Source: Naegleria gruberi (taxonomy: Eukaryota). From it: 64,000 nucleotides of DNA. The DNA lies in assembly GCA_000004985.1 (NCBI GenBank), contig GG738917.1. One strand, 5' to 3'. The notes beneath the pieces were generated by a model. That model made no database searches and was not told the DNA's origin. It worked only from the letters and a program-made list of their open reading frames with translations. A program made the translations under genes and the position numbers. Shown piece by piece: positions 13,701-52,213 of the stretch. Position 1 is the stretch's first letter. Every line of letters starts with the position of its first letter.

Positions 13701-13986
13701 TAATTTCAATGGAACAAATTGTGAAACATGTGCCAATAACTATTTTGGCAAACGCTGTACTAATAGCATCCCCAATAGAAGAGCACTCATGACATCCACC
13801 ACTTCAGTAGAAATCGAGTTCTTCTCTCCAAAATATTTTGCAACCAACAGTCAAACTACAATTAGTTGTGATAATATACTGTCCCCTGCATCTATCACTA
13901 AATATGTAGAATTGGACTTTGTAGACCAAAATTACTTTCCACTTTTGCAGATTCTAATGGAAACTATCAATATAGATTCACTATAA
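10771..13986 (+). CDS. 5' portion of a very large secreted/transmembrane protein: signal peptide, jacalin-like lectin domain, and about 12 tenascin/laminin-type EGF modules.
   Basis: Signal peptide MTFTNSKIPEELLILVLSVTFVLCFASVSEG. Jacalin-like segment GGSGGDHSF...IVFNYFVGEGF...FDPDEYITELEMSVDRGTFITNVGYIRIKTD...FTFGQ. Repeated C-x-C-x(2)-G-[YF]-x-G-x-x-C EGF units from 12740-13750. The antisense ORF 12740-13396 is a shadow. Confidence 0.7.
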   Translation: MISKFGMTFTNSKIPEELLILVLSVTFVLCFASVSEGRGPKACADLSTLPAGCTQKSSKDYSGTLATSTGPLMGMAADLSANIYVIQNAFNSFKTNNLATATLNKGIISKYSADKGVLAWEKLTCGSGNTFFSNIVATTSQVNIGGTIENVTNPSDLCIFNAVSGSNTRELDGRNLSFFVSLDSSSGIVRFVKSLDVYNGSTILSMTSDASDNVIIAQKVKKYGSGVISMDGITVTLPNNDVSNVVISEFSNVDGNLRWSSVLCEDPSSEEACQVISIHSSYGVDDNVLIVLSVKGSVVLKNFGKISSQVNMANIFLVGLSKNGQKVRFAKTLSYSLTIDITNVKATINQAGEMVLALACSDNCIINQEMVNPGIYLIQFNMFKLSIDYVKLFVPISNLDTVQVASIAIDAAGNPYTIIKSLSTPQITIYDSDSRKSTFVSPNVLLVKHTASSGSVYWAQPIVTFSTVSKLFIPNMFRSDSYVYTFPTIPVVYQDNNQVNLNTFQPCLGTVSKLSTSYFVGGSGGDHSFSTDQKVKSIACYGEGTVKGIVFNYFVGEGFKAGTTEGTTKTIIFDPDEYITELEMSVDRGTFITNVGYIRIKTDRQQFTFGQKRSSSNYNYILDNDKTVIAWSIKSGTHVDSITAFLGDRANGYPLYCDCKSGFEGSTCERTQCYGQDATATGVVCSGKGSCSGPNSCACNLGYSGHACIDVNYCNNNSSLADPLLCGTGTCKSDLCDCKPGFYGERCQYWDCYGIQQTNTSYACSANGQCQSPNNCQCYDYTKYGGLQCQLPICNFLLSNHSDVCTGHGICTAPEKCACEPNYLGQYCEEFSCFGIERNSSNVCNTRGKCIGINQCKCTLPYYGNECQLYDCHGVVYNDNNVCSSHGQCGSPNNCTCQAGYFSNDCSLYQCSGKLMNDSSVCSGRGTCQSPNNCSCVEGHSGQVCENYYCFNVFKGNSSVCSGNGNCISSNNCQCKYNFNGTNCETCANNYFGKRCTNSIPNRRALMTSTTSVEIEFFSPKYFATNSQTTISCDNILSPASITKYVELDFVDQNYFPLLQILMETINIDSL

Positions 13987-22037: not shown

Positions 22038-25000
22038 TTGTTCTTGTTGTATTTTAAAGACACACCAAGACGGGTTAACAACTTCAAAAAAAAACAAAAA
22101 TACAAGATGGTTACAAAGGCAAATATTTCAATTGTTGTCATCGTTGTGATGATGGCCATGTTGGTGTACATGGTTAATGGAGCACCATTAAATACATACT
22201 CTGTCAAGATTAGTACATTTGCAGGTGGTAATGGTGAATTCAAAGATCCACAAAAGCTTGCTAGATTATCAAATGGTGATATTTTGGTCAGTGATGCTTT
22301 AGGTCATGCCATTAAGAAGATTAACGTGACCAGTGGTGTGATTACTACAATTGCTGGTAATGGTACTGCTGGTTTTGGAGGGGATAATGGTCCAGCTGTC
22401 AATGCTCTAGTCAACAAACCATTTGGTATTGCAGTTTCTCAAACAGATGAGATTTACTTTGCTGATTCTGGAAATAATAGAATTAGAAAAATTGATTTGA
22501 CTGGTACAATTACAACAGTGGTTGGTACAGGAGATGCTACACCTTTCATTGATGGTGATTTGGCCACCAATTGTACCATTAACACTCCAATGGATGTTTC
22601 ATTGAGTACTTCAGGTGAATTATACATTGCTGATATGTACAATTACAGAATTAGAAAAGTTTTGACTAATGGTACCATTGTTACATTTGCTGGAAGTGGT
22701 CAATCAGGTCATACAGGTGATGGTGGTTTGGCAACCAATGCTGCCATGGCTCTTGCTTATGGTGTAAAAGTTTTTTCAAATGGAGAAGTTTACATTTCCG
22801 ATAGTTTCAATTTCAAAGTGAGAAAGGTTGATGTTAATGGAACTATTACAACTGTAGCTGGTTCTGGTGTTGCTCCTTATAGTGGTGATAACATTTTGGC
22901 TACTGCTGCCAATTTGAATTATCCAAGTGATGTTTTTCGTTTTGATACAGGTGAATTGGTCATTGCTGATACAAACAATAATAGAATTAGACTTGTAATG
23001 CCAAATGGTACAATTATTACAACTGCTGGTAATGGTACTGCTTCATTCTCTGATGGTGAATTTGCTGAAGAGAATGGATTATCTCTTCCAACTGGTTTGG
23101 TACTTATTCAAAATGGATTGTTGATTGCTGATGCTGGTAATAAGAGAATTAGATTGTTACAACGTACAATTTTCTCATGCTATGGAAAGTCAACACTCGA
23201 TTCCAATGTTTGCAGTGGTCAAGGAAGATGTGTTGGTAATAATATATGTCAATGTAATGCTGGTTTTGAAGGACCAACTTGTCTTCCATCCAAGTATTAT
23301 ATTACAACTGTTGCAACTGATTTTAAGGATCCACAAAAGATTGCCAAATTGTCAAATGGTGATATTATCGTTTCTGATACAGGTGATCACTCTATTAAGA
23401 AGATTAGTTACTCAACTGGTGTTATTTCAAGAATTGCTGGTACTGGTGTTGCAGGTTTTTCAGGTGATGGTGGTTTGGCTTCCCAAGCTCAACTCAATAA
23501 GCCATACGGTATTGCAATTACTGCTAATGATGAAATTTACATTGCTGACAATTTAAATCATAGAATTAGATTTGTTGATGTGAATGGCAATATTTCAACT
23601 GTTGCTGGTACTTCAATTGGTTTCTCTGGTGATAGTGGTTTGGCAACAGCTGCTAAATTAAATGCTCCAATGGATGTTTCATTGAGCGCTTCAGGTGATT
23701 TATATATTGCTGATAGAGATAATTATAGAATTAGAAGAGTTAGCAGTGGAGTTATTTCTACCTTTGCTGGTAATGGTCAATCTGGTTATTCTGGTGATGG
23801 TGGTCAAGCTACAAGTGCAGCCTTATCTCAAGCTTATGGTGTTAAGGTTATTAATGGCGAAGTTTACATTTCAGATAGTAACAATTACAAAGTTAGAAAG
23901 GTTGATGGAAGTGGAATTATTACAACTATTGCTGGTTCTGGAGCTGCTCCTTTCAATGGTGATGGATTGATGGCAACTTCTTCGAATATGAACCATCCAA
24001 CTGATGTTGCACTTCTACCAAGTGGTGAAATGATAATTGCGGACACTGATAACTATAGAATTAGAATGGTTCTTTTGAATGGTACAATGGTCACTATTGC
24101 AGGTAATGGTAATTATGTTTCAAGTGGTGATTATGGCCTTGCTACATCTGCTGGTTTGAAACTCCCAACCGGTATTTTAATTACTCAAGATGGTATCATG
24201 TTCACTGAAACAAGTAGTGTTGGAAGTAATGGAGGCGGTAAAGTTAGATTATTATCAACAGTTTATGTTCCTCCATTGTGTAATGGTATGTCTGCAAGTG
24301 ATCCTTATGTTTGTAACGGAAGAGGATCATGCATTGGTAAAGATTTGTGTCAATGTAATGCAGGATTCAATGGAACCTTCTGTGCAAATTCTCAATGTGT
24401 TAAACCATCTGCTGATATCACAATTCCATGTTTTGGAAATGGTAATTGTTCAAATGATGTTTGTACATGTGCTCCTGGTTTCTATGGACCTTACTGTTCA
24501 ATCTCAGTTATGATTAGCTCTAGAGGATATACTCATCCAATTATGGGTATTTTCATGATGGCTACAGTTAATTCATTGACCCTTGATGGTATTTCAAATG
24601 TTGATTACAGTTGGTCTCAAATTTCTGGTCCAACCATTTCAAACTTGGCAACCATGACCAATTTGAAAACTCCAACATTTATCATTCCAGGAAAATTCAA
24701 TTCTCTTTCATTCGATAACGGTCTTGTTTCTGGTAATACATATGGTTTTGCATTGACTGCCAAGATTACAACTGGTGCCTACACAACAACTGTCACAACC
24801 TCAACCACTGTTCTAGTTCAACAAAATCCAGCATTGACTTTCACATTAAAAGATGACAGTACCAATCAAGCTATTACTTCAGGTGTTGCTGGTACAACTG
24901 TTTTCAGAATTAACATTACAAGTAACTCAAATCCATACTCTGACTCTAGCTTCAAATACGGATTTGGTTTTGCAGATTCTAATAGTATTACAATTCTCAC

Positions 25001-26198
25001 TGATATGAAAGAAGGTCCAGCTACTTTTAAATTACCATTCATTTCAGGTCAATCAAGTGTTGATATCTATGTTGGATGTGAAGGAACTAACTCATACAGT
25101 GTTCAAAAATTGACAACTGTCTCATTGACAAATCCAGTTTCAAACTTGCCAACAAGTCAAGCCATTTCCTCAATTCAAAATCTCTTCACTTCAAATTCTT
25201 CTGTTGGTGATTTGTTGGGTGCTGCTTCACTTTTGAATACCATTACAACAACTGATGCAACTCAAATTGCAAATAAGCAAACTATCAGAAATTCAATCAT
25301 TACCACAATTTCTAAAGCAATTTCCACTGGAGATCTTGGTTCTGCAATTAAGGCCCTCTCTACCGTAACATCAGTCACATCAGAAATCACTCAAACTTCT
25401 GCTGATAACACACTTGAAACAATGATTAGTGGAACCAACAATCCACAATTCTCCAGAAATGAAGTTGCTTCACTCGTTAATATTGCTTCAAGTATTGGAT
25501 CAGTTTCAAGCGGTAGCAAGACAGTATCACTTGGTAATTCAATAGGATCTAAACTCATTACACAAATGTCCTTGGGAGATTTAATCAGTAGTAGTGGAGC
25601 CAATTTTGGTATTGCAATTTCGAGAGGTGTGAAATCATTCGCTCTTGCAAATGTTTCAATTGCTTTACCATCTAACACAAGATCTTTGAATGGCATTGAA
25701 TGTTTCTTCATTGATATTAAGGACCAACTTTCCTTCATGCAATGTTTGGCAAATTCCAATTGGGTAGCCAGAAATGGACCAAAATATGCACCAGGTACTC
25801 AAAGAGCTCTTAACGCTGCCACATATACTATTGGTTCATTGGTTTATGACCTGACACCAATGTACGACAATGGAACCATTGTTTCTGGTAATGTTACAAG
25901 TTCTACCGATATTCAAATTACAATTCCTTACACAGGATCATTGACACCAGTTTGTGGTATTTTAAATAGTGATCAAACTTACTCTGTCAATAGCAAAGCC
26001 ACACTAGTCAAAGGAAATGGTTCAGTAACTTGTAAAACTAAAGTATTGAGAGGAAATGTCTTGCTTTTAACTCAAGCTACAGCTGCTAGTTCACCTATCA
26101 CACCTAAGAAATCGACAATTGTTGGCGGAAGTGAAACAAACAAGTTGAGTGCATTGTTGATGTGTTTGTTGATGGCTATTTCCATGTTACTCTTCTAA
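22038..26198 (+). CDS. Large secreted, probably GPI-anchored, protein with two tandem NHL-repeat beta-propeller + EGF modules followed by a Thr/Ser-rich stalk. The likely true start is the Met at about 22107 (MVTKANISIVVIVVMMAMLVYMVNG).
   Basis: Repeated NHL-type blades (Y[IF]ADSxNNRIRK[IV], GxxGxxGDGG). EGF units (CSGQGRCVGNNICQCNAGFEGPTC and CNGRGSCIGKDLCQCNAGFNGTFC). Clear internal duplication between about 22200-23290 and 23300-24390. Hydrophobic C-terminus (LSALLMCLLMAISMLLF). The antisense ORFs inside are shadows. Confidence 0.75.
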   Translation: MFLLYFKDTPRRVNNFKKKQKYKMVTKANISIVVIVVMMAMLVYMVNGAPLNTYSVKISTFAGGNGEFKDPQKLARLSNGDILVSDALGHAIKKINVTSGVITTIAGNGTAGFGGDNGPAVNALVNKPFGIAVSQTDEIYFADSGNNRIRKIDLTGTITTVVGTGDATPFIDGDLATNCTINTPMDVSLSTSGELYIADMYNYRIRKVLTNGTIVTFAGSGQSGHTGDGGLATNAAMALAYGVKVFSNGEVYISDSFNFKVRKVDVNGTITTVAGSGVAPYSGDNILATAANLNYPSDVFRFDTGELVIADTNNNRIRLVMPNGTIITTAGNGTASFSDGEFAEENGLSLPTGLVLIQNGLLIADAGNKRIRLLQRTIFSCYGKSTLDSNVCSGQGRCVGNNICQCNAGFEGPTCLPSKYYITTVATDFKDPQKIAKLSNGDIIVSDTGDHSIKKISYSTGVISRIAGTGVAGFSGDGGLASQAQLNKPYGIAITANDEIYIADNLNHRIRFVDVNGNISTVAGTSIGFSGDSGLATAAKLNAPMDVSLSASGDLYIADRDNYRIRRVSSGVISTFAGNGQSGYSGDGGQATSAALSQAYGVKVINGEVYISDSNNYKVRKVDGSGIITTIAGSGAAPFNGDGLMATSSNMNHPTDVALLPSGEMIIADTDNYRIRMVLLNGTMVTIAGNGNYVSSGDYGLATSAGLKLPTGILITQDGIMFTETSSVGSNGGGKVRLLSTVYVPPLCNGMSASDPYVCNGRGSCIGKDLCQCNAGFNGTFCANSQCVKPSADITIPCFGNGNCSNDVCTCAPGFYGPYCSISVMISSRGYTHPIMGIFMMATVNSLTLDGISNVDYSWSQISGPTISNLATMTNLKTPTFIIPGKFNSLSFDNGLVSGNTYGFALTAKITTGAYTTTVTTSTTVLVQQNPALTFTLKDDSTNQAITSGVAGTTVFRINITSNSNPYSDSSFKYGFGFADSNSITILTDMKEGPATFKLPFISGQSSVDIYVGCEGTNSYSVQKLTTVSLTNPVSNLPTSQAISSIQNLFTSNSSVGDLLGAASLLNTITTTDATQIANKQTIRNSIITTISKAISTGDLGSAIKALSTVTSVTSEITQTSADNTLETMISGTNNPQFSRNEVASLVNIASSIGSVSSGSKTVSLGNSIGSKLITQMSLGDLISSSGANFGIAISRGVKSFALANVSIALPSNTRSLNGIECFFIDIKDQLSFMQCLANSNWVARNGPKYAPGTQRALNAATYTIGSLVYDLTPMYDNGTIVSGNVTSSTDIQITIPYTGSLTPVCGILNSDQTYSVNSKATLVKGNGSVTCKTKVLRGNVLLLTQATAASSPITPKKSTIVGGSETNKLSALLMCLLMAISMLLF

Positions 26199-26568: not shown

Positions 26569-29500
26569 TTAATTGGTTGTCCTGCTGTTACAAGTGGACA
26601 GGATCTTCAATAATTCAGATCTAATAATGGAGAAGGAAGGTCTTAAATCTGTTTGTTGATTCCAACATTGCTTTGCGAGTATAAAGTATTCCAAAATAGC
26701 CACAGGATTCATATTCGAAACTGGATACATATTTAACCATTCTTGTAATTCCTCAATAGTTTCGAAAGGAACAAGAGGTCTATAACCATTCAGAACCATT
26801 CCCAAAACATTAACAGGTGCCAAACTAGCATTTGCTCCAACTTTAGACGAAACTGTATAAGGAGTCAACTCAAAGAAAAGTTCCCACATGATTATTCCAA
26901 AAGAATAAACATCCATCTTGGTCGCCCTACTAATTTTCGACTCGTGTGAAATCTCCAAACTGTCATTTGTCAATTCTTGTTCATTTCTCATTAATTCTGG
27001 ACTCGCATAAAATAAAGTTCCAATTCCACGTGTCATGGTATTTTGTGTTAAATTTCCAACACTTCTACTCAATCCAAAATCACAAATTTTACATCTCAAA
27101 TCTTCGTCTAAAAGGACATTTCCTGGTTTGAGATCTCTGTGAATAATGGCAGGTTGTAGAGAATGCAAATAATCCATTCCAGCAGCAATGTCCTGGAGGA
27201 GGAGAATCTTTTGTTGGAATGTGAGATTAGTCTTGCCATTTCTGCAATTGAAAATTAATCTTTCCAATGAACCATTTTCCAAAAATTCAGTGACCATGTA
27301 TCTTGTTTCATCGGTGATACACACTCCGTAGAATTTCAAAATATTGGCATGTTGTAAACTTGCTAAAATTGAAGCTTCCTTCTCAAATTCCAATTGTAGC
27401 TCTTCATCATCTGCCAAATTTTTCAATGACTTGACAGCAACACTTGTTTCCTTAAATAAAATTGCCTTATAGACAACTCCTTGTCCACCTTCTGATATCT
27501 TTTTTACAATTTCCAAATCCTCAATGTTAATAATTATTGCTTCCAATCGAGATTTCATTTTCAATTCCATTTCATTTTGGCTTAATAGGGGTGAAGTGAG
27601 CGAGGTGGTATAGTAGGTCGAAAGAGGATCCTCTGCATTGCCAAATATCACTCTCTTATCAAGAATCTTTCTCGCAATGCTCTTCTCTGCTCTTTCCTTT
27701 CTCGATAACTTGTTGAGTCTTGCACGAATTTTCATTACAATGTAAATGACAAGAGTGGAAGAGATGATTCCCAAAATGAAGAATAGGATACTCGAAGGAA
27801 TGGCTATTCCTAAAATTAATCCCAACGATACTTTCTCTTTTGGAATGCACGAGTATCCAATCGCTGGAATACTTGTAAGAACAAGCTCTGTATCTGTTGG
27901 ACAATTAACAACTTGAATGGTTAGTGAGTTTGATTCCTTGAGTGGATATTTAGCCCATCCAATTGTTATATTAAACATGGTGGATAATCCCTTCTTGATG
28001 GATGCTTCAACAGAAAGCATTGTAATATTGACACCATCAAATGTTGGATTCACAATAAAAGTATAATCTGGATTAGTGACATTTACGTACATATTATCAA
28101 CATTGACTGGTATTACCATCTCTGAAGAAGTGGCCATTGCACTAATAAAAACTTGTTGTCCTGGATATAAATAGTAAAACTGTCCATAATTTGAGCTATT
28201 AAGACTCAATGAATTTTCCAATAAAAAATAATCATCTCCAAATATGTCAGCTCTATTTCCAATAAAACGATTATTTGTTAATGAAGTTTCAGCTTTTTGA
28301 AATTGATAAATGGCTCCTCCAGCTCTCTGAGCTCTATTATTCCTAAATGTACAATCTCTAATCGATGCCAATGCCTCTTTCCAATAAAAGAGAGCTCCTC
28401 CATTATAAGCATAATTGGATTCAAAGGTTGCATTCTTAATAGATAATGAATCAACACTTAAAGAGGATAATATAAAGATTGCTCCTCCATTTCCCATATA
28501 AATCTTGTCAGTTGGCAGAGAATTACTATAGGTAACTCTATTTCCATAAAATAGAGAACCTGTCAATGATAAATCAGTTGCACCTAAGATGAAGATTGCT
28601 CCACCAGATTTCTTTGCTGTGTTATTCCTAAATATGGTATTGGAAATTTCTAGACTCTGTGTAGTTGAAATGAAAATAGCTCCTCCCAAATTTGGAGAAT
28701 AATTATCTTGAAATAGAGAATTTTCAATTAAGGTAACGACCAATTTGGTTTCTTTTGCCATTGAATCAATATAAATAGGAGAACCTAATCCTCTGGTGAA
28801 ATTCGATTCCTTAATATAAAATTTCAAGATATCCGAAAGGTAAAACGTCGAAGCTCTTTCTCCCTTATTAGAATCAAATTTGCTATTCATCACCCTTAAT
28901 GTATCCACTACAAATAATGAGACAGGTGCTTGATAAGTTATTAGAAACTCAGTATCATAACTCAAAGTACTAAAAGAAGAACTAGACGAAATTTCACAAC
29001 TTTCAAACTCTACATTGGTGCTAATTCTAATAGAAAACCAAATACCTCCATTCAGCATTCTACTTTTCCAAACTCTGACCAATCCAGTATTTGCAATCAC
29101 AAAAACTGGATCACTCTTCATTGCCACTGAAAATGTGCAATTTTCAATTAAAATATTATCAGCAAAAGAAATTGAAAAAAAAGCCAAAGTTTCCTCAAAT
29201 ATTGAATTATATAATGATAATAAAGATGATTGTTCTGTGTTGATGATAAAAGATTGAGTTGATTGAATATTCGAAATGTAGAGCTTATCTTGTTTCGTTC
29301 CAATTAGAATATTCATTGTAAAGTAGAGAATTTTGGAATTATCAATTCTTGATAATTGAATAGAATTTGTTGTGAATTTAAATATATAAACATTTGAATA
29401 TTCCAAGATAAATAAATTTAGAGAAGTGAAATCTGAAATTAAATTTACAATTTTCACATTCGAAAGTAAAAAACCTTTCGCATAGGAATCATAAATTCTC

Positions 29501-30075
29501 ACATTTTCAATTCCAATATTTGCAAAATATAAAACATCAACATCTTTTCTATCCACATTCAATAAATTCAAATTATCTACTTGACATTTAACTGTCACTT
29601 GTTTAGTTTGGTTCGGTTGACCAGAAATTTTAATCCAATAAAACAAGCCAGTGAGTGGTGAACGTAGGATTGTGGGTGGTGACGAACAATCGGCTAATAA
29701 ATCATTCATCAAAATTATTTCGACTGCAACTATTCGATTCACAAAATAGAGAAGGAAATTTATATTATTCGAAAGGTCGATATCTAGTCGGGTGAATACT
29801 TGATGAAGATTTACGCAAGGAGTGTCTAGAGTACAGTTTAGACTTGAAGATTCGAATGCAGTGGCCGAATTCACATAGTATGTGAAATTTAAATAGGGAG
29901 CTTTCGAATAGGATTGAAAAAACTGTTCTGCTTGTTGTGCCTTGTTTTCTAATGGAAAGAAAAGAAAGAAAGTTATTAGAATAATGATGATGAAAAAGGT
30001 GTGATGGGTTTCTAATAGTTTCATTTTTTTGACGAAAGCTCTTTGAACTTCACTAATAATTTTTTTAATAGCCAT
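26569..30075 (-). CDS. Receptor-like TKL protein kinase: signal/anchor, large ectodomain with polymorphic-membrane-protein-type (GGA[IL] / FxxN) parallel beta-helix repeats, a single TM, and a cytoplasmic kinase domain.
   Basis: Ectodomain repeats NLGGAIFIS...FRNNTAKKSGGAIFIL...GNGGAIFIL...FESNYAYNGGALFYW...FRNNRAQRAGGAIYQF. TM LGLILGIAIPSSILFFILGIISSTLVIYIVM. Kinase motifs ISEGGQGVVYKA, VAVK, HRDLKPGNVLLD, DFGLSR, GTLFYASPE. Confidence 0.8.
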   Translation of the reverse strand: MAIKKIISEVQRAFVKKMKLLETHHTFFIIIILITFFLFFPLENKAQQAEQFFQSYSKAPYLNFTYYVNSATAFESSSLNCTLDTPCVNLHQVFTRLDIDLSNNINFLLYFVNRIVAVEIILMNDLLADCSSPPTILRSPLTGLFYWIKISGQPNQTKQVTVKCQVDNLNLLNVDRKDVDVLYFANIGIENVRIYDSYAKGFLLSNVKIVNLISDFTSLNLFILEYSNVYIFKFTTNSIQLSRIDNSKILYFTMNILIGTKQDKLYISNIQSTQSFIINTEQSSLLSLYNSIFEETLAFFSISFADNILIENCTFSVAMKSDPVFVIANTGLVRVWKSRMLNGGIWFSIRISTNVEFESCEISSSSSFSTLSYDTEFLITYQAPVSLFVVDTLRVMNSKFDSNKGERASTFYLSDILKFYIKESNFTRGLGSPIYIDSMAKETKLVVTLIENSLFQDNYSPNLGGAIFISTTQSLEISNTIFRNNTAKKSGGAIFILGATDLSLTGSLFYGNRVTYSNSLPTDKIYMGNGGAIFILSSLSVDSLSIKNATFESNYAYNGGALFYWKEALASIRDCTFRNNRAQRAGGAIYQFQKAETSLTNNRFIGNRADIFGDDYFLLENSLSLNSSNYGQFYYLYPGQQVFISAMATSSEMVIPVNVDNMYVNVTNPDYTFIVNPTFDGVNITMLSVEASIKKGLSTMFNITIGWAKYPLKESNSLTIQVVNCPTDTELVLTSIPAIGYSCIPKEKVSLGLILGIAIPSSILFFILGIISSTLVIYIVMKIRARLNKLSRKERAEKSIARKILDKRVIFGNAEDPLSTYYTTSLTSPLLSQNEMELKMKSRLEAIIINIEDLEIVKKISEGGQGVVYKAILFKETSVAVKSLKNLADDEELQLEFEKEASILASLQHANILKFYGVCITDETRYMVTEFLENGSLERLIFNCRNGKTNLTFQQKILLLQDIAAGMDYLHSLQPAIIHRDLKPGNVLLDEDLRCKICDFGLSRSVGNLTQNTMTRGIGTLFYASPELMRNEQELTNDSLEISHESKISRATKMDVYSFGIIMWELFFELTPYTVSSKVGANASLAPVNVLGMVLNGYRPLVPFETIEELQEWLNMYPVSNMNPVAILEYFILAKQCWNQQTDLRPSFSIIRSELLKILSTCNSRTTN

Positions 30076-30192: not shown

Positions 30193-31575
30193 TTATTCTA
30201 GGTCTTGTTGAAAACCAAGCAAATGAGAATTGTCAATTGTTGATCTTTTGCGTTGAGAGCCTAACAGATGGATTGATGAAGCAATTTCTTCAATAATGGA
30301 ATGTTGAGAAGCTTTCGAATAAGTGCAGCTGGTTTCGTCTAGAGTCGTTCTATGTTCCAACGCTACTAAAGAATTCACCTCTTCCATGCATAGAACCAAA
30401 ACCTCCACCTTTACCCTTCGATTCAAACTTTGGTTGTAAAATATCCACTCATTCGAAAGCGCTTGCGAATCTTGCAGTTTCTCCACCTTTCTATCTCTGA
30501 AATTTTCCACAAAATTTGGAATTTGTTGAACCCCAACAGAATTCATCGTTTCTGCACTCTCAAAATTCAGGAATGCTCCAATTTGATCCTGATGAATCAT
30601 TTTATGAATCAAATTTCTATTCGAAAGCTCCAAAGACTGCTCACAATCAGCAAATAATTGTAACTTGATTTGATCCAGTTCAGTATCTATGAAATTTCCC
30701 CTTCTATCCTTCAATTGAATATTCTTGAATAGAAATGTTGAGATTGTTTCACAAAATTGATTCGATTGTACAAATTCCTGAACGCATTTCTCATAATTTT
30801 CTGAAATGTTGAAGATTATTCCACTTTCTTCATCCACAATTTCAACCATTGAATAAGGATTGGTTGTTGCTGCTGTATTGGAAATTATGGACAATGAAGA
30901 GTTGACTAAGGATTGAAAATGAGAGTTGGAACTATTCATGGTTTTGCATCTTGTGTCCATCGTGTTCATTCTGGATTTGTATGGAGAAACCATTGGAAAT
31001 GAGCCACTCACACATCGTCTCAAAAGTGTCAAGGCAGAATAAAGTGTTCCAGCCAGTTTATCCTTTCTTCTCAATGTGGTGGATAGTACTGTTTCCATAT
31101 TTGGTGTAATAGTATTTGGAACTTGAATCTGTCCACAACCTAAGAGGGAATCCTTGGAGAAGAATTTGGATTCCATAATTGAAACTCTTATTGAAAGGTT
31201 TTGACAATTATGAACATGATTCAAATTGAAAGTTAAAGTTGAATCTATAGTTAAGGAAAGAATCTTCATTTCATCATAATTGCCAGCAAATGAGGAAGGT
31301 GAAGAGGCACAATCATCATTATTAGTGGACACAAGTGTTGGACATATGGAAATTTTAATAGGTTTACTCAATGGTACTTCGTGTTGTTCACAAGGATTGT
31401 CTTGTTGTTGTTGTTGTTGTTGTTGATGGGGCAACGAAGCGAACAACTCTACTAGACAATATAATCGCTTGGAACCAACACTTTGATTCTTCTTCTTCTT
31501 TCCAATAGATTCTTCTGCTGTTTGGAAGAAACAATGATGCAAATGCAACGAGATGAGGTCACCATTCAAAAACAT
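30193..31575 (-). CDS. Hypothetical protein with a poly-Q tract.
   Basis: 460-aa ORF. (CAA)n on the coding strand at 31389-31424. No confident domain assignment. Confidence 0.45.
   Translation of the reverse strand: MFLNGDLISLHLHHCFFQTAEESIGKKKKNQSVGSKRLYCLVELFASLPHQQQQQQQQDNPCEQHEVPLSKPIKISICPTLVSTNNDDCASSPSSFAGNYDEMKILSLTIDSTLTFNLNHVHNCQNLSIRVSIMESKFFSKDSLLGCGQIQVPNTITPNMETVLSTTLRRKDKLAGTLYSALTLLRRCVSGSFPMVSPYKSRMNTMDTRCKTMNSSNSHFQSLVNSSLSIISNTAATTNPYSMVEIVDEESGIIFNISENYEKCVQEFVQSNQFCETISTFLFKNIQLKDRRGNFIDTELDQIKLQLFADCEQSLELSNRNLIHKMIHQDQIGAFLNFESAETMNSVGVQQIPNFVENFRDRKVEKLQDSQALSNEWIFYNQSLNRRVKVEVLVLCMEEVNSLVALEHRTTLDETSCTYSKASQHSIIEEIASSIHLLGSQRKRSTIDNSHLLGFQQDLE
31389..31424 (-). repeat. 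(CAA)12 microsatellite encoding poly-Gln.
   Basis: ttgttgttg... on the plus strand within the 30193-31575 CDS. Confidence 0.8.
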
Positions 31576-31727
31576 TTTTTATGAGTTGGAATTTATGAAT
31601 CATCAGTTCTTCTTTATCACCTACTTATAATGTTGTTTGGGTCACTTATTTTGTTGTGATTGTCAAATATCATACCTTACTTCAACTTCCAAATTTGTAA
31701 AGTGATAATACCAAACCTACTACTTCC

Positions 31728-34558
31728 CTACTCTGAAATCAAGCAAGTTGCGTCGCTCCATCTTCCACTTGATGGTCTCAAAGTCCATTCAGAGAATCTT
31801 TTGAATGAATCTGCACAAATTAATTGGGTAATCTGCATTTGTAATTTATCAAATAAGTCTAATTGTGCATATCCATTCTTGATTTTTTCATATTCACTTT
31901 CGTAGACTGCATGGGATATATTAAGGAAGGTGTTTGAAGATTTTTCGAGATACTTGCTGATTATTTCCTGTTGTTTCTTTCCTCTGTCTATGGTTGTACT
32001 GGTTGACTTGTATGCTCGAACTTCTTCCAAGAATGCTAAATTCTCTGCACTTTTTTCCTTCTCCAAGAAGATTCTAAATAATGAAAGGAGAGTTGGATTA
32101 TTGAACATGTTTTCAAACTCTTCAATGTTTCTCGCCTCATCAACAGTTCTTCTTCTGGTTAGGGCAGTTCTAATATCCTTTTTTTGCTCCGTTATTTTCA
32201 TGACTAGAACGTAGGTATCGACTGGTTTACCACAAGAATTTGAAACTTTTGACTTGGTAATGTTGATAGAGACTGGCACAGGTGTACTCAGTGAAGAGAG
32301 CAAATTAGTCTCCCATCTTGTCTCAGAAATTAATAATTCATCAAATTTTTGTAGTAAATCCTTAAAGGGTAGCTTTTCTTGTAAGTATTGGACTATATTA
32401 TAGATTTGAGAGGAATTCTTTGCTTTTCTGGCTATTTTAGACTCGAAGGAGGTATTGGCAGATATGATTGAACCGTCACAAGCGTCTATGAAAGCTACAA
32501 GCTCTGGTACAGAATTCATTACGCTTCTATTCTTATGTTCCTCAATAGAAGCCCTTTCCAACAGCTTTTTGATTGATTTGTTGTCCTTTTCCAATTTCTT
32601 TTGATTTAGATCCAATACATCGAGCATTCCATTAATGAAAAAGGTTAGCTCTCCAACTTCATCCTTATATTTCGATATTAGTCGTTTTGTAAAGTCAGAA
32701 GTCTGAATAATTGATTTAACAAATTTTGATACTACCAAAATACGTCTAATTACAAACAGCTCTATAAAAAAGATCATTACTACTAATGATACAAATATAA
32801 ATAACCACGATACAAAAATACCCAAAAAACAAGATTCCCAAATGATTACAACGTACTCTCTTACAACATCTGATCTTAGGACAACAGTATATTCCCCATA
32901 AAAATCAGGAATCATATGATATGAAACAAGCCTCTTTCTTTTTGAAATTATGCTTGGAAGGTCTTTGTCTTGAGTGCAAACACGAAAATCAGTCTTGAGA
33001 TCATCGAGCAGAACTGTATTTGAATCCAAAGCGAAAACCTTGCTTTGACCATACTGATATCTAACCTCTATTTCATTCGATATTTGAAGAAATACATTTG
33101 AGGCATTTCCTTCAAATGATGTACCAAGTGATTTTCCTAAAAGAGACAACTCTGATTGATTTCTCAAATTGAATACAGTGATACACGAGGATGTAAAGGA
33201 AGAGATTGGTTCTAGTCTATCCAAAGTAATGTACCTTCCAAACATTAGTACATATGGCACACCAAATGTTTTCATAATGGAAATCATGAGAATGTGAGTG
33301 CTGTTAGTGTGAGGTTCAGCAGTCCCAAGAAATATTATTGGATTCTCAACATTAATGTATCCAGATTTGATAATTTCATCCTGTAGATTGTTCTTATTAA
33401 TATCCAAAGGTAAAGTCAAAACCTCTTTAGGAGGTTTTATAGGCTTTCCATTATGACATGCAGAAAGGTATGTTAATTCACTCGAATAATTGTAAATTCC
33501 AACAATATCAACTCCAACAATATCCAATCTTGGACAATTGAATAACTCTCCAAATATTGATATTGTTCCTCTTCAGTAGTGGTACTCTCTTTGAAATCTA
33601 TAGCTCTATTATGTCCATACTCGTATAACTTTGATTCTAATTTGTGCATCTTATTGAGAAATGTAACAGTTCCTGAAATACCCATCGATTGACCTTTTGT
33701 TGCCTCAACATTATCTGAGGCATATGCAGAGAAAATTGCAAGTAGTCCAAACAAGAAAATTGTCAGTAGTACCACAAAAACAAATAGACCACTCCAAACA
33801 CAAACTCTCAAATTCATAAACATATCCTTCCAAATGTTTTGTTGCTGTTTAATCCTCTCTTGATATTTGGCAATGAAAGCAGTGATAGAATACTGCTTAC
33901 TCACCTCATCAGAGCTTGGATTACTTCTCGGTGTCAATGTCGAAGGAGCAAACAAAGAAGGAGATGCTACCTTCTCAATCAAGAGAGGTCCCACAGAGAC
34001 TGGGGATTGTGGCGAACCCACTCTAAACATTATTTCTTGTTGTCCATTCATACTTTGATTATTATTACTATTATTATTGAATTTGTTAGTGTTGGGTGTT
34101 GTTGGTTCATCTCGACTGCTTTGAATAGTTAGAGGTGATGAAACATTTCTCCTCCTCGTGTAAACATCGACCATTCCTGATTGGATGGGTGTTGAAGAAG
34201 AAAGAGGTTCCACTGAAAAACCAAACATCAAGTCGCTTCCTGTGGGTGATGATGAAGTTAGAGGATTCTGTTGTTCCTCTTCTTGTTGTACTTCTATGAG
34301 AATGTTTGTTCTTCCATATGATGATGATGATAAGGATGAAACCAAATCTTGTTGTTGTTGTTGTTGAATAGCATGCAATATATTACAACTTGTGGGTGTT
34401 GATGTTGAACCCGAAGCACACTCCAATATTATATTATTAATATTAATTGTTGTAGCCTGAACATTGTCCATAATATTATCATCTCCACCAATGCTGCTAC
34501 CACAACCATCATCATCAACTCGACAACAACAATCTGTCTGCTTTCCTTGTTCAGACAT
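31728..34558 (-). CDS. Two-TM sensor-type membrane protein. It has a long low-complexity cytoplasmic N-terminus, TM1, an extracellular domain of about 230 aa, TM2, a HAMP domain, a possible PAS-like segment and a C-terminal RGS domain. The two ORFs (33473-34558 and 31728-33527) are joined by a frame change near 33480-33530.
   Basis: TM1 VWSGLFVFVVLLTIFLFGLLAIF. TM2 VVIIWESCFLGIFVSWLFIFVSLVVMIFFIELFV. HAMP-like FVKSIIQTSDFTKRLISKYKDEVGELTFFINGMLDVL. RGS-like FRIFLEKEKSAENLAFLEEVRAYK...IISKYLEK...LQMQITQLICADSFKRF. Removing a 38-nt GT...AG segment (gtgaattaacatacctttctgcatgtcataatggaaag) connects ...EFTIIR to PIKPPKEVLTLPLD in frame. Confidence 0.65.
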
Positions 34559-34953: not shown

Positions 34954-36162
34954 ATGAATGTCAAACACAAGTATCCATGTACACATTGCAAATCGGAAGT
35001 TTATTTTCAACCATCGTCGACTATGGCATCCAATTCAGCAGCCCTCGATGATGGTTTTGTCTTTATTACATCAAATGATGGTGGTGGCGGACAAACACCA
35101 ACCAACAATACAACAAGCCTAAATATTGAATGTAATCATAGCGGAAAGATTGAACGGATTGAAGATATTGAATATCTAACGGAGGATATATTGAGTTCCA
35201 TCACTATAGGAGAGGATTTGAAAAAGAATACAAAATTATCAACGCTCATCAATGATCTGTATTTATGTAATACTTGTATGACTGATTTGTTTGGTGGACT
35301 TTCGGAGGAAATTGAACAATTAGAATTGGAATGTAAATTATATGATGAAAAATTGAAAAAATCGAAAAAGTTTGATACGAATGGAATGTACAAGAAATAC
35401 ATGAAGGAAATGGATGAATTGAGGAATGAAGAGTTGGTTCTCAGAGAGCAGGTTAATGTTATACAGAATGATAGGCATCGAATTGGAAGAAATATTACAA
35501 GTTTACAAACTGAATATAATACTCAACAGGAAAGCGAGAAGAATTATTGGAAAATTTATTTTCAATTCATTCATAATAATCAGTTCCTTGCAGAGGAAAA
35601 TCGTAGAAAGAGTCAATTGATAGATAAGGAGGATAAAATTAGAAGGAAATCACCTCTTGCTGGCATGTTTCATTTGTGGTATGAAGGATCGTATGGTACG
35701 ATCAATGGATTGAGAATGGGTCGTCTAAGACATGATCCTGTAAGTTGGGAGGAAATCAATGCTGCCTGGGGACTTGCAGTCTTGTTGTTAGATCTTACTG
35801 CCCAACAATTGAATAATTTCAAATTTACCAAATACAAACTGGTGCCAAAGGCCAGCTGTTCATCCATTAAGGAACTGGAGAGTGGAGACAAGTATGATTT
35901 ATTCTTCTCTTCCACTAGAAACATTCAATCATTCAATGAGGGAATGAAATGCTTCCTATTCTGCCTTGAAGAATTATGTCAACATATTGGTATTGTAGTG
36001 CCAGGTTCCTCAATTGGAACTAGATTGATAGTCAAGGCCGATGAGGGTAAGATTCAAGACTTGAGCATGCTGTACAGTGTCGAAAGAGAATACGAGTGGA
36101 CAAAGGCATTGAAGTATCTCATCATTAACCTCAAATTTGTACAAAAGAATGTAATCAAATAA
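34954..36162 (+). CDS. atg6: Beclin-1 / Atg6 (Vps30) homologue: coiled-coil plus C-terminal BARA domain.
   Basis: FHLWYEGSYGTINGLRMGRLRHDPVSWEEINAAWGLAVLLLDLTAQQL matches the Beclin-1 signature ...GQFGTINNFRLGRLP..VEWNEINAAWGQTVLLL. A coiled-coil region is upstream. Confidence 0.85.
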   Translation: MNVKHKYPCTHCKSEVYFQPSSTMASNSAALDDGFVFITSNDGGGGQTPTNNTTSLNIECNHSGKIERIEDIEYLTEDILSSITIGEDLKKNTKLSTLINDLYLCNTCMTDLFGGLSEEIEQLELECKLYDEKLKKSKKFDTNGMYKKYMKEMDELRNEELVLREQVNVIQNDRHRIGRNITSLQTEYNTQQESEKNYWKIYFQFIHNNQFLAEENRRKSQLIDKEDKIRRKSPLAGMFHLWYEGSYGTINGLRMGRLRHDPVSWEEINAAWGLAVLLLDLTAQQLNNFKFTKYKLVPKASCSSIKELESGDKYDLFFSSTRNIQSFNEGMKCFLFCLEELCQHIGIVVPGSSIGTRLIVKADEGKIQDLSMLYSVEREYEWTKALKYLIINLKFVQKNVIK

Positions 36163-48928: not shown

Positions 48929-51900
48929 TTGAAATTTCAATATATTTTATGTTTAAAAAAAATGCATCAAGAAAAGAACTTCACGGATGTGCTCATCTCT
49001 TTACATGATATTGATTCCGAAAGTGATAGTGTGAATTTATCTTGCTCTGAATTATTGATCAGCAAATTTCGGCAAACAATATCGGAAAGACTTAAACTAA
49101 ACGAAAGTATTTATGAGCACATGAAACAACTGATAGAGTTGCATGGTGTGAACAAATGTATTCCTTTCGTTCGTGAAAATCCCTTTCCTGATAATGATTG
49201 CACCCTAGCCTTTTTCAAAATCCTTTCTTACTGTGGTTTATTATTGGAATTTGCATCCGAAAGAATACGAAACGATGAAACACTTGCATTGATTGCTGTA
49301 CAGAATGATGTAGATGCCTTGATGGATGTGAGCATTAATTTGAGAGAAAATAGAGATTTTGCTTTAAAAGTTGTGCAATTAGATATTTCAAATAGTTACA
49401 AAAAGAGTACGATGAAATATTTGAACAAATTCAAAGACGATTATGAAATTGTGTTGAAGGCAGTTCGCCAATGTGGTATATCACTTGCAAATACAGCTAT
49501 AAGATTGAGATATGACAAGCAAATAATTGAAGAAGCTGTCAAAAGTTGTGGAACAGCTCTATCCTATGTTCCAAAAGACTTTATCGATAGAAATTTGGTA
49601 ATGAGTGCAATATCATCAGATGCAAAGGCTCTTCAATACGCCCTAAATTTTAAAAACGATAAGGAAGTAGTATTTGCTGCATTTCAAGTGGGTAAAGATT
49701 CTTTTCATTTTGCTTCGGATGAATTGAAATCAGATCGAGAATTTTGTATGAAATTGGTAAAGTTAAATGGCCATACGATTAGATTTTGTTCAGACGAGTT
49801 GAAAAATGATAAGGAGATGGCTATTATTGCTGTGAAATCAGACCCATATTCATATTATTGCCTGCCTCCAAATATGAAGAATGATAGAGAAATATTGTTA
49901 AAATGTGCCTCTATTGCTCTTTTTGACCTACCCTATGATATAAGTAGCGACAGAGAGTTTATGAATAGTTTACTAATTTCAGGAAAGCAATTATTGAACT
50001 TTTTAGAATATTCGGCATTGACAAGAGATTTTGAATTAGAACTCATTGGAAGCAATTGCAATTATCAATATGGTTTATTTGGAAGAATTAAAGAGGAAGA
50101 AGAACTATTCACAAGAATTGTTAACATAGATCCTTCTGCATTCATGTTTGCAACAAGTGATAATATTAGGAACAATAAGCAAATTGTTATGAATGCACTT
50201 TTTTATGAGGCAGAAATTCTCGGTAATATATCAGAGGAATTGAAAAATGACAGAGAATTGTTTGAGCTAGCCATTCGATTACATGATAATGTGCTTTATT
50301 ATGCATCAATGAATTTGAGAAATGATAAAGATTTAGTAATGATGTCAATCGAATATGATGCCTTTTCCTTTCAATACGCCTCTGAAGAATTGAAAAACGA
50401 CAGACAAGTTGCAGAGCTAGCAATAACGATCAATGGCCTTAATTTCCAATTCGCTTCTGAAGATTTGAGAAATGACAAGGAATTTTGCAAACTGGCGACT
50501 CGTAATTCTTACCATTGTTTAAATGAATATTTAGGTGCTGACATGAAAAGAGAAAGGAATCTTATTTTGGAAAATGTAAAGAAGCATACTTCTTTCATTC
50601 CAGATGAATTCAAAGATGATAAGGAAATAGTTTTTGAATCAGTTTCAGTATATGGTGGAAATATTGAACAAGCATCTTTTGATTTAAGAAATGATGATAG
50701 AGAGTTGATACGAACGGCAGTAAGAAATGGCTGTCCATTAAGCTCCTTAGATAACAGAATTATAGATAGAGACCTAGTCTTCGAGTCAATCCTTTATGGT
50801 AGCGCCTTGTGCATCGTGTCCGTTGTTGAGGAATGGCCAGAAATAGTAGATGAGGAAAAAATCATTCATTTTCAAATTTTGAGAGGATGTTGGGATTGGT
50901 TCAAATATTTCAATCCTCTATTAAGAAATGATAAAGATTTTGTAAGGAAATATGTAAAGATTTGTGGCGACATATTGGAATATGTTTCAGAAGATTTTAA
51001 AAATGATAGAGAAATTGTTAAAGAAGCAGTTAGCAACAGTGCAAATGCATTTAAATACGCGTCAGATACACTGAAGAATGACAGAGAAATTGTGGAAGCA
51101 TTGAAGAATGCAGAAGAATCAGTATATTTCATATCAGGTCTTAAAGACAGAGAGTTAGTATTGCAAGCTGCTGAAAAAGGAGTTATTCTAAACACACTCG
51201 AAGAATTTACGTATGATAGAGAAATTGCCTTAAAAACAGTTTCCAAGGCTGGTTCAAAGTTACTTTACCTATCCTACGATCTAAGAAGTGATAGGGAAAT
51301 TGTATTAGAAGCTGTAAAGAATGACCACTCATCTCTTGAATATTCCATGTATGATTCAAGATATGATAAGGATGTCATCTTGAAAGCAGATCTCCCTCTC
51401 AGCCATGTGGTACCAGCTCTAAGAAATGATAGAGAGCTCGTACTAAAGTTGCTCGAAAAACCCCTAAAAAAGTACAAATATCATTTCGATATTATAGATG
51501 ATACGATTGAGCTAGAGTATTATTCTGGATCACAATTCGTGTATCTCTCAGATGAATTGAAAGAAGAATTCAAATCGAATAAGGAAATTATGTTGAAAGC
51601 CATTAAATTTGGGCCAACAGCAATCAATTATGCCTCCAAGGAGCTTCAAAATGATGAAGAGTTTGTATTGGAAGCTGCTCAAATCAATGGTATGGTACTA
51701 AACCATGTACTACCGAAATTTAAACATAATCGAAATGTTGTAATGAAGGCAGTTCAACAAAATGGTATGTCCCTCTCTCATGCATGCAATGAATTACAAA
51801 ACGACATTGAAATAGTTCAAAACGCTCTCAAATCCCATGTTTGTGCTTTTGAATATGCCGGTTATAAATTGAGAGGCGACAAGGAATTTGTATTGGAAAT

Positions 51901-52213
51901 GACTAGACAAAATTATCATGCTTTTAAGTTTGCCAGTAGTGATTTACAAGGTGATGAAGACATTATTTCACAAGTTATGGAAATTAATATTGAGACACTG
52001 AATTGTGCCTCCTATTCATTGCGGAATAATGTTGACTTCTTGAAGAGGATGAACAAGGATAATAGACTTGTGGAGAGGGCTTCCTTCAATCTACAAAGAT
52101 CCATTAACATGCAAGGATTGTTGGATATTGAAGAAACAGACCCAAAGAAATATGAAAAGCTACTAGATTTTTACATTGACAGGTTAGTTGTGGCCACAGA
52201 GAACTCAAATTGA
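48929..52213 (+). CDS. Repeat protein (1094 aa) built from about 25 tandem 35-38-aa units of consensus LKNDRE[IVF]VL.AV.QNG.AL.YAS.E, resembling DUF4116-type repeats.
   Basis: Visible periodic repeats, for example LKNDKEMAIIAVKSDPYSYYCLPPNM, LKNDRELFELAIRLHDNVLYYASMNL, LRNDKDLVMMSIEYDAFSFQYASEEL, LKNDRQVAELAITINGLNFQFASEDL. The antisense ORFs are shadows. Confidence 0.7.
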   Translation: MKFQYILCLKKMHQEKNFTDVLISLHDIDSESDSVNLSCSELLISKFRQTISERLKLNESIYEHMKQLIELHGVNKCIPFVRENPFPDNDCTLAFFKILSYCGLLLEFASERIRNDETLALIAVQNDVDALMDVSINLRENRDFALKVVQLDISNSYKKSTMKYLNKFKDDYEIVLKAVRQCGISLANTAIRLRYDKQIIEEAVKSCGTALSYVPKDFIDRNLVMSAISSDAKALQYALNFKNDKEVVFAAFQVGKDSFHFASDELKSDREFCMKLVKLNGHTIRFCSDELKNDKEMAIIAVKSDPYSYYCLPPNMKNDREILLKCASIALFDLPYDISSDREFMNSLLISGKQLLNFLEYSALTRDFELELIGSNCNYQYGLFGRIKEEEELFTRIVNIDPSAFMFATSDNIRNNKQIVMNALFYEAEILGNISEELKNDRELFELAIRLHDNVLYYASMNLRNDKDLVMMSIEYDAFSFQYASEELKNDRQVAELAITINGLNFQFASEDLRNDKEFCKLATRNSYHCLNEYLGADMKRERNLILENVKKHTSFIPDEFKDDKEIVFESVSVYGGNIEQASFDLRNDDRELIRTAVRNGCPLSSLDNRIIDRDLVFESILYGSALCIVSVVEEWPEIVDEEKIIHFQILRGCWDWFKYFNPLLRNDKDFVRKYVKICGDILEYVSEDFKNDREIVKEAVSNSANAFKYASDTLKNDREIVEALKNAEESVYFISGLKDRELVLQAAEKGVILNTLEEFTYDREIALKTVSKAGSKLLYLSYDLRSDREIVLEAVKNDHSSLEYSMYDSRYDKDVILKADLPLSHVVPALRNDRELVLKLLEKPLKKYKYHFDIIDDTIELEYYSGSQFVYLSDELKEEFKSNKEIMLKAIKFGPTAINYASKELQNDEEFVLEAAQINGMVLNHVLPKFKHNRNVVMKAVQQNGMSLSHACNELQNDIEIVQNALKSHVCAFEYAGYKLRGDKEFVLEMTRQNYHAFKFASSDLQGDEDIISQVMEINIETLNCASYSLRNNVDFLKRMNKDNRLVERASFNLQRSINMQGLLDIEETDPKKYEKLLDFYIDRLVVATENSN

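Follow-up and report, generated by a model that had tools for sequence, protein, structure and literature searches.

Does a locus of Naegleria gruberi that reads as two overlapping open reading frames (ORFs) encode one membrane receptor, with a bacterial-type sensor at one end and a eukaryotic RGS domain at the other? The locus lies on the minus strand at positions 31728 to 34558 of the window, the 64-kb stretch of the N. gruberi reference assembly that was examined here (GC content 31-36%). An initial annotation, made from the letters of the DNA, had proposed such a receptor and had taken the organism as an amoebozoan; N. gruberi is a heterolobosean (Discoba). Our analysis indicates that the locus is probably one N. 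gruberi gene for a 943-amino-acid receptor-type GTPase-activating protein (receptor-GAP) with a bacterial-style input, in which a ligand would set the switch-off of Gα-GTP.

ORF1 (34558..33473, 361 amino acids) and ORF2 (33527..31728, 599 amino acids) were both present as first listed, on the minus strand, as are all features of the gene described below. The stretch open in both frames is limited to 33473..33569 (97 nt). We inserted one base at each position from 33600 to 33466 and scored the product against a hidden Markov model (HMM) built from 14 homologs. The best score, 478 bits, was obtained at 33541/33542 (453-472 bits at the other positions), upstream of the interval 33480-33530 in which the frame change had been placed initially. 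At this site, an extra T in a TT run gives tat ttc aat tgt (Y F N C), recreating the conserved family motif Y-F-x-C and a cysteine present in most paralogs. With this 1-nt repair, the gene extends from the ATG at 34558..34556 to the TAG at 31730..31728 and comprises 943 codons plus the stop codon (31728..34558); its translation contains no internal stops and is collinear with 14 paralogs. Because the paralogs align gaplessly through the break, and because the repair maximises the paralog-HMM score and restores Y-F-x-C, ORF1 and ORF2 are, by this comparison, a single gene split by a 1-nt frameshift, as had been supposed initially.

The break is one missing base, for which an assembly error or a lesion of very recent date is the probable cause. 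A splice or an indel had been suggested for the junction. The indel stood, as the loss of a single base, but the splice did not: since the 14 homologs align across the stretch without a gap, there is no intron of plausible size at the junction, and with both frames open for so short a distance an intron was rejected. Programmed frameshifting was not supported: inspection by eye showed no canonical slippery heptamer at the frameshift, and folding of the surrounding RNA gave nothing out of the ordinary (z = -1.7). A tandem 15-nt direct repeat, GATATTGTTGGAGTT / GATATTGTTGGAATT, which encodes DIVGV-DIVGI, lies a short way downstream of the break, at about 33495..33524 (minus strand). It may be there by chance, since the paralogs show no gap at this position.

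Employing phmmer, we exhaustively searched 1.84 billion cluster representatives with ORF2 and obtained 465 representatives at E-values of 1e-3 or lower, 29 of them at 1e-30 or lower. Besides the gene's own database model, 28 representatives matched at E-values from 2e-76 to 1e-30, and many of these, among them the whole top ten, span ORF2 from about residue 60 to residue 580. In an alignment of 62 sequences (the query and its 61 top matches), RGS was found in 57, CHASE4 in 37, HAMP in 34 and PAS in 33. The nearest relative of the N. gruberi protein is 34% identical to it, and the paralogs are 28-34% identical. All named sources are heterolobosean (N. gruberi, N. fowleri, N. lovaniensis, Willaertia magna and Acrasis kona), and one metagenomic family member sits on a contig with eukaryotic genes. 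By these alignments, the protein is a full-length collinear member, from the first transmembrane helix (TM1) to RGS and with four ectodomain cysteines, of a heterolobosean CHASE4-HAMP-PAS-RGS family. The architecture had been thought undescribed, and our search of the literature on Naegleria, Heterolobosea and Acrasis with RGS, HAMP, CHASE and CHASE4 found no paper describing it, the likeliest prior source (Anantharaman et al. 2011, Gene 475:63) lying outside the coverage of that search. It is not confined to this gene, however, but characterises a sizeable heterolobosean family. Other members are present in public databases as uncharacterised proteins, some of them automatically named 'HAMP domain-containing' or 'RGS domain-containing'.

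The repaired protein consists, from the N-terminus, of a low-complexity cytosolic region, TM1, a CHASE4-like ectodomain, TM2, HAMP, a coiled-coil linker, PAS and a C-terminal RGS box. The order from HAMP to RGS had been predicted correctly; an additional PAS domain lies between the two. A tail of 20 residues separates the RGS box (residues 815-923, 31791..32117) from the stop codon. The box matched Pfam PF00615 with an E-value of 4.5e-19 and 69.4 bits against a cut-off of 23.9 (ORF2 residues 471-579) and is the sole Pfam domain passing on this protein. A phmmer search against solved structures returned RGS5, RGS4 and RGS8 at about 1e-5. The AlphaFold model of ORF2 showed a mean predicted local distance difference test score (pLDDT) of 82, exceeding 90 over the RGS box. 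With Foldseek, the modelled box matched RGS8, RGS16 and RGS4 at a TMt (the TM-score normalised to the target) of 0.84-0.87 and a root-mean-square deviation of 1.6-3.0 Å. Equivalents of RGS4 S85, E87, N88, N128, L159, D163, S164 and R167 are all present (in SAEN, FLNIS and LICADSFKRF); we take these residues to be the contacts to the Gα switch regions, numbered per the RGS4-Giα1 structure. The positions of E87, N88, N128, D163 and R167 are kept in 42-52 of the 62 aligned family sequences, and those of S85, L159 and S164 vary. As judged from sequence and predicted fold, the output domain is an R4-like canonical RGS box, in agreement with the RGS output first proposed, and the protein likely functions as a ligand-regulated GAP for Gα.

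Only two hydrophobic segments were found in the repaired protein by the Kyte-Doolittle scale. TM1 (residues 254-276, 33731..33799, VWSGLFVFVVLLTIFLFGLLAIF) reaches a maximum of 3.11 over 19 residues and aligns with the corresponding helix in both the paralogs and prokaryote-type CHASE4 proteins, 'prokaryote-type' denoting domain architecture here and not named taxa. TM2 (residues 579-605, 32745..32825, FLGIFVSWLFIFVSLVVMIFFIELFVI) reaches 3.04. Basic residues are found on the N-terminal side of TM1 and the C-terminal side of TM2. The N-terminal region (residues 1-253, 33800..34558) is of low complexity, rich in Q, S, N and T, and K/R-rich just before TM1; because this K/R-rich stretch fits the positive-inside rule, the N-terminus is assigned to the cytosol. 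The N-in, two-TM topology with an extracellular domain, as put forward initially, was borne out by the two strong hydropathy segments, the basic charges on the cytosolic sides and the sequons and conserved cysteines in the loop. The Q/S/N-rich extension, by contrast, is less unusual than had been thought, low-complexity extensions being common among the paralogs. No Pfam match was found in residues 1-253. Near the N-terminus of the extension (about 34490..34537, minus strand), there is a Cys cluster, QTDCCCRVDDDGCG; that it might serve for palmitoylation, which some mammalian RGS proteins undergo, is speculation.

The extracellular sensor (residues 277-578, 32826..33730) comprises about 300 amino acids; the periplasm-like domain had been proposed correctly as such, but its length had been given as about 230. 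The loop contains four N-x-S/T sequons and four family-conserved cysteines (YFNC, LSAC, SSC and RVC), which are kept in 10-14 of the 14 heterolobosean paralogs, and no cysteine is conserved in the prokaryote-type CHASE4 set. The eukaryotic ectodomains also show an insertion around an R-x-C motif that is absent from the prokaryote-type set. The extra cysteines and the insertion fit adaptation to an oxidising extracellular space. An R-x-D-x-x-R motif before TM2 is intact. The 37 Pfam CHASE4 (PF05228) matches in the family fall at the aligned region, the best with an E-value of 1.3e-32. A model of residues 341-578, with the first 64 ectodomain residues left out, was predicted by AlphaFold with a pLDDT of 78.5. 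Using Foldseek, we matched this model to bacterial tandem-PAS (dCache-type) sensor ectodomains (8w7p, TlpA, DctB and HK1S-Z16) at E-values of 6e-6 to 1e-3, with TM-scores of just about 0.3; the CHASE4 structure of Pseudomonas aeruginosa PA2072 was absent among the listed matches. The CHASE/Cache-type sensor guessed at the outset is thus in keeping with both the paralogs, which match Pfam CHASE4, and the model, which resembles bacterial tandem-PAS sensor domains. These data support a divergent, putatively disulfide-bearing CHASE4-like ectodomain of the tandem PAS-like (Cache-type) kind, assigned by homology through its relatives and sited between the two TM helices.

HAMP (residues 606-654, 32598..32744) is composed of helix 1, a 13-residue connector and helix 2, which starts at DEVGEL. 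The motif KDEVGELTFFINGML (DEVGEL...F.INGML) is located 26 residues beyond TM2. In the AlphaFold model, a 54-residue helix (ORF2 223-276) spans TM2 and HAMP helix 1, followed by a loop (277-289) and by helix 2 from 290 onwards. The Glu of DEVGEL is invariant in an alignment of the HAMP-linker region (A2), and 51 of the 62 sequences have it when the full family is aligned. This protein retains all three key residues of HAMP (Glu, Gly and Asn). Pfam HAMP (PF00672) matched 34 of the 62 collinear members, with a best E-value of 5e-11, and the family profile of the region after TM2 gave full-length matches to the HAMP structures of Af1503 (E-values of 2.5e-4 to 3e-3). Two matches that outscored Af1503 in the latter search are repetitive designed coiled coils. 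A word-index search with alignment A2 gave no match.

Beyond HAMP, a coiled-coil signalling helix (about residues 655-681, 32517..32597) falls within one unbroken helix of the model (ORF2 290-339). In 8 of the 35 family members aligned in A2, the same seven residues are missing from the helix between HAMP and PAS. An indel of seven residues keeps the heptad register, as a register-sensitive coiled-coil relay would predict. The cytoplasmic PAS domain (about residues 682-790, 32190..32516) is predicted to adopt a five-stranded alpha/beta PAS fold, for which Foldseek found NifL and other PAS structures at a TMt of 0.6-0.75; PAS was matched by Pfam in 33 of the 62 family members. The assignments of HAMP, PAS and CHASE4 are supported by collinear paralogs, profile comparisons and AlphaFold models, not by single-sequence scores.

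Matches without RGS in the phmmer search were CHASE4-HAMP-PAS proteins with a histidine kinase, GGDEF or HD-GYP as the last domain. When the RGS family was aligned by hhalign to this prokaryote-type CHASE4-HAMP-PAS set, the probability was 100 and the E-value 2.2e-65 over 496 columns, from TM1 through PAS, with the HAMP segment lying within the alignment. The query alone matched such proteins at an E-value of about 1e-10 over the sensor end, TM2 and HAMP. The match from TM1 to PAS therefore indicates that the whole input module is prokaryotic in type and that the output alone was exchanged. Evidently, to judge by these profiles, the module was inherited as one block from a prokaryote-type sensor, with RGS replacing a kinase or cyclase output. 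Different predicted bacterial sensor heads occur on the same PAS-RGS cassette: among the weaker matches were NIT-PAS-RGS (Willaertia magna), MHYT-PAS-RGS (metagenomes) and CHASE-PAS-RGS (Acrasis kona and metagenomes).

We propose that the protein functions, as bacterial sensors do, in the form of a homodimer. An extracellular ligand binding at the ectodomain would displace TM2, and HAMP and the coiled coil would turn this shift into an altered packing of PAS and RGS. The Gα-binding face of the RGS box might be exposed, occluded or otherwise altered in its availability, and the ligand would in this way fix the rate at which Gα-GTP is switched off. In N. fowleri, Gα subunits load GTP without a receptor (they are self-activating), and RGS proteins of the membrane switch them off (PMC9283941), so that regulated GAP activity would be a natural control point. 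The step least supported in this scheme is the gating of a monomeric RGS box by a dimeric HAMP/PAS relay. RGS boxes work as monomers and have no known allosteric switch.

Besides that step, several observations weigh against a receptor-GAP with a working bacterial-style input. Of the domains named for HMM searches in the initial annotation, RGS passed, HAMP and PAS stayed below threshold, and CHASE4 had no match on this protein. Pfam HAMP scored 13.1 bits (cut-off 25; E-value 0.13), with helix 2 alone matched. The HAMP had been called well formed on the strength of the DE[IV]GEL...F..M motif; the motif, its placement after TM2 and the family-level matches uphold this description, but the single-sequence score does not. 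Over the PAS region, both Pfam matches were sub-threshold (PAS_8, 16.5 bits against 21.8, E-value 0.008; PAS_4, 14 bits against 23.1, E-value 0.059). Pfam CHASE4 showed no match at an E-value of 1 or lower in a frame-joined TM1-to-RGS reconstruction made with the repair site as it stood before refinement, and Pfam HAMP likewise gave no match there. The family W-D-D motif is replaced in the sensor (YEYGHNRAIDF against YEYAAWDDVY), which may mean that this member is degenerating or that its ligand has changed. The ectodomain family profile gave no meaningful match among PDB sequences, that of the PA2072 CHASE4 included. The inter-domain geometry of the AlphaFold model is uncertain, with a predicted TM-score (pTM) of 0.52 and no confident PAS-RGS interface. 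A second, independent copy of the locus was sought and not found, and the frameshift stands in the reference sequence.

Alternatively, the locus might be a recently dead pseudogene. In that case the deletion at 33541/33542 would be real, no receptor would be made, and at most a 361-amino-acid fragment containing TM1 would remain. The reference assembly carries the frameshift, and the public gene model was forced to bridge it by an intron; the base missing from a short T run, however, looks equally like an assembly error. Similarly, the sensor is the most divergent of the family, without W-D-D and without a Pfam CHASE4 match, the HAMP score is weak, and the nearest relative is just 34% identical, with no close ortholog found, but the four family cysteines, R-x-D-x-x-R, the Glu, Gly and Asn of HAMP and the eight RGS contacts are intact. 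On the two sides of the break, 339 and 603 codons are free of stops in a genome of 34% GC, where random frames soon close. Frames that stay open for so long at such a high AT content, together with functional residues that are still intact, speak against an old pseudogene, and we consider a recent one unlikely.

A live receptor need not be a GAP. The RGS box might serve as a scaffold, as in GRK2, axin and sorting nexins, or the sensor might steer localisation or endocytosis, as proposed for AtRGS1; we regard either as less likely still than a dead gene. Some RGS domains no longer have GAP activity (PMC3971589), and both the monomeric nature of the RGS box, with no allosteric switch known, and the poorly defined PAS-RGS packing in the model would suit such a role. 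The RGS4 contacts to the Gα switch regions, however, are all present, five of them at positions that most of the family has kept, and among solved structures the box is nearest to R4-type RGS proteins, which are catalytically active. Apparently, a receptor-GAP accounts better for the output domain.

The gene is represented in the databases by a 927-amino-acid entry, 'predicted protein [Naegleria gruberi]', which is the sole match in a word-index protein search with ORF2 and an exact join of three pieces of the window: 34558..33905, 32702..31899 and about 31517..30193 (model span 30193..34558, minus strand). Its first intron (32703..33904, 1202 nt) really codes for TM1, the sensor, TM2 and HAMP helix 1, and the database entry shows the RGS domain only, because the model splices out the sensor half. 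The second splice cuts the RGS box at 31899, dropping its last helices together with the stop codon, and the model then appends an unrelated downstream ORF (30193..31575, minus strand), which has its own ATG, no Pfam domain and no likeness to the RGS-receptor family. When close homologs were scanned singly, 8 of 8 terminated 6-44 residues past the RGS box. Compared with these homologs, the public model is a chimera that omits the sensor and fuses a neighbour gene. That it should nevertheless be correct, giving a soluble protein of half a HAMP, PAS, a cut RGS and the downstream ORF, or that the two ORFs should be separate genes, is hardly credible, even though the model stands in GenBank/UniProt and its first intron has GTGAGT...CAG ends, as the 'intron' is open in two frames and collinear with more than 14 paralogs, the second splice and the added ORF run against the homologs as described above, and ORF2 has no TM1 of its own. 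Here, a one-base frameshift led the public model to drop a whole sensor and merge two genes, which is a lesson for annotation.

The neighbourhood of the gene was also examined. An Atg6/Beclin homolog (34954..36162, plus strand; BARA domain, E-value 6e-41) is transcribed divergently relative to the RGS gene and shares a 395-nt intergenic region with it. On the other side, just past the ORF that adjoins the RGS gene downstream, there is a gene for a 1168-amino-acid receptor-like protein kinase with N-terminal repeats of the Chlamydia-PMP type (26569..30075, minus strand). Two large surface-protein genes (10771..13986 and 22038..26198, both plus strand) encode teneurin-like EGF repeats, one with a Jacalin lectin domain and the other with NHL repeats, and a 1094-amino-acid ORF (48929..52213, plus strand) consists of about 20 DUF4116 repeats (E-value 9e-177). 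The window otherwise contains ordinary eukaryotic genes, such as those for a Vps39-like protein and an ABC transporter in addition to Atg6/Beclin and the EGF/NHL/Jacalin surface proteins.

Beyond this one gene, we suggest, at somewhat less than an even chance, that heteroloboseans run much of their extracellular sensing via a hitherto undescribed class of bacterial-style, two-pass receptor-GAPs, in which swappable CHASE4, CHASE, NIT or MHYT heads and a HAMP/PAS relay gate RGS, with no G-protein-coupled receptor. If so, ligands would tune GTP hydrolysis on self-activating Gα subunits, and HAMP-type transmembrane signalling would for the first time be seen to feed into the heterotrimeric G-protein cycle, via a horizontally acquired complete prokaryotic input module. 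In plants, G-protein signalling is thought to be governed by regulated GAP activity, not by receptor-driven exchange, and such control was shown to be plausible in N. fowleri (PMC9283941). To our knowledge, the receptor-GAPs described to date are all seven-transmembrane (7TM)-RGS proteins; a family joining a bacterial sensor to RGS would be a second, mechanistically distinct answer to the same problem, and one of the rare cases in which a HAMP relay acts on an output typical of eukaryotes. The system would be experimentally tractable, since chimeric HAMP constructs and locking substitutions are established tools. N. fowleri, a lethal pathogen, has members of the family, which would be surface receptors without a human counterpart.

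Among the heterolobosean paralogs, EFC36241, EFC36662 and EFC38310 (N. gruberi), KAF0978929 (N. fowleri), KAG2383338 (N. lovaniensis) and KAL9651711 (Willaertia magna) are collinear with this protein from TM1 to RGS (E-values down to 2e-76) and share with it the four extracellular cysteines and the HAMP-PAS linker. Unlike them, it has a more divergent sensor that has lost W-D-D and the Pfam CHASE4 match, a weaker HAMP score, a frameshift in the assembly and a public model in which the sensor is hidden.

Arabidopsis AtRGS1 and the 7TM-RGS proteins of N. fowleri are likewise membrane receptor-like proteins with a C-terminal cytosolic RGS box. They share with the predicted receptor the logic of acting on GTP hydrolysis instead of nucleotide exchange, and Gα of N. 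fowleri is self-activating. This protein, however, has two TM helices instead of seven, and a bacterial-type extracellular sensor with a HAMP-PAS relay takes the place of the 7TM bundle. No homology to 7TM-RGS proteins beyond the RGS box was found in any search made. It resembles the 7TM-RGS receptor-GAPs in its working but is not one of them. N. fowleri has 28 7TM-RGS proteins and 79 other RGS proteins, the latter listed with no description of their architectures (Bosch, Jeck and Siderovski 2022, PMC9283941), and neither HAMP nor CHASE is mentioned in that paper or its supplements.

The input has its counterpart in prokaryote-type CHASE4-HAMP-PAS kinases and cyclic di-GMP enzymes, to which TM1, CHASE4, TM2, HAMP and PAS are homologous as a block. 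The CHASE4 of P. aeruginosa PA2072 senses extracellular ATP (PMC12625894), and that of IsmP and PA0847 binds iron (PMC10904736); either might be considered as a ligand for the divergent sensor of the N. gruberi protein. Those sensors end in HisKA/HATPase, GGDEF, EAL or HD-GYP, whereas the N. gruberi protein ends in RGS. For this output, RGS4, RGS5, RGS8 and RGS16 of the R4 subfamily are the best matches in sequence and fold, with identical or conservative Gα contacts, but R4 proteins are small, soluble or palmitoylated, and without the transmembrane sensor present here. One precedent for the combination of the two is the single Naegleria Cache-adenylate cyclase (PMC4822843), in which a horizontally acquired bacterial extracellular sensor is coupled to a cytosolic signalling enzyme. 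Both place a bacterial sensor on a eukaryotic output, but the output there is a cyclase, and the predicted target here is the heterotrimeric G-protein cycle.

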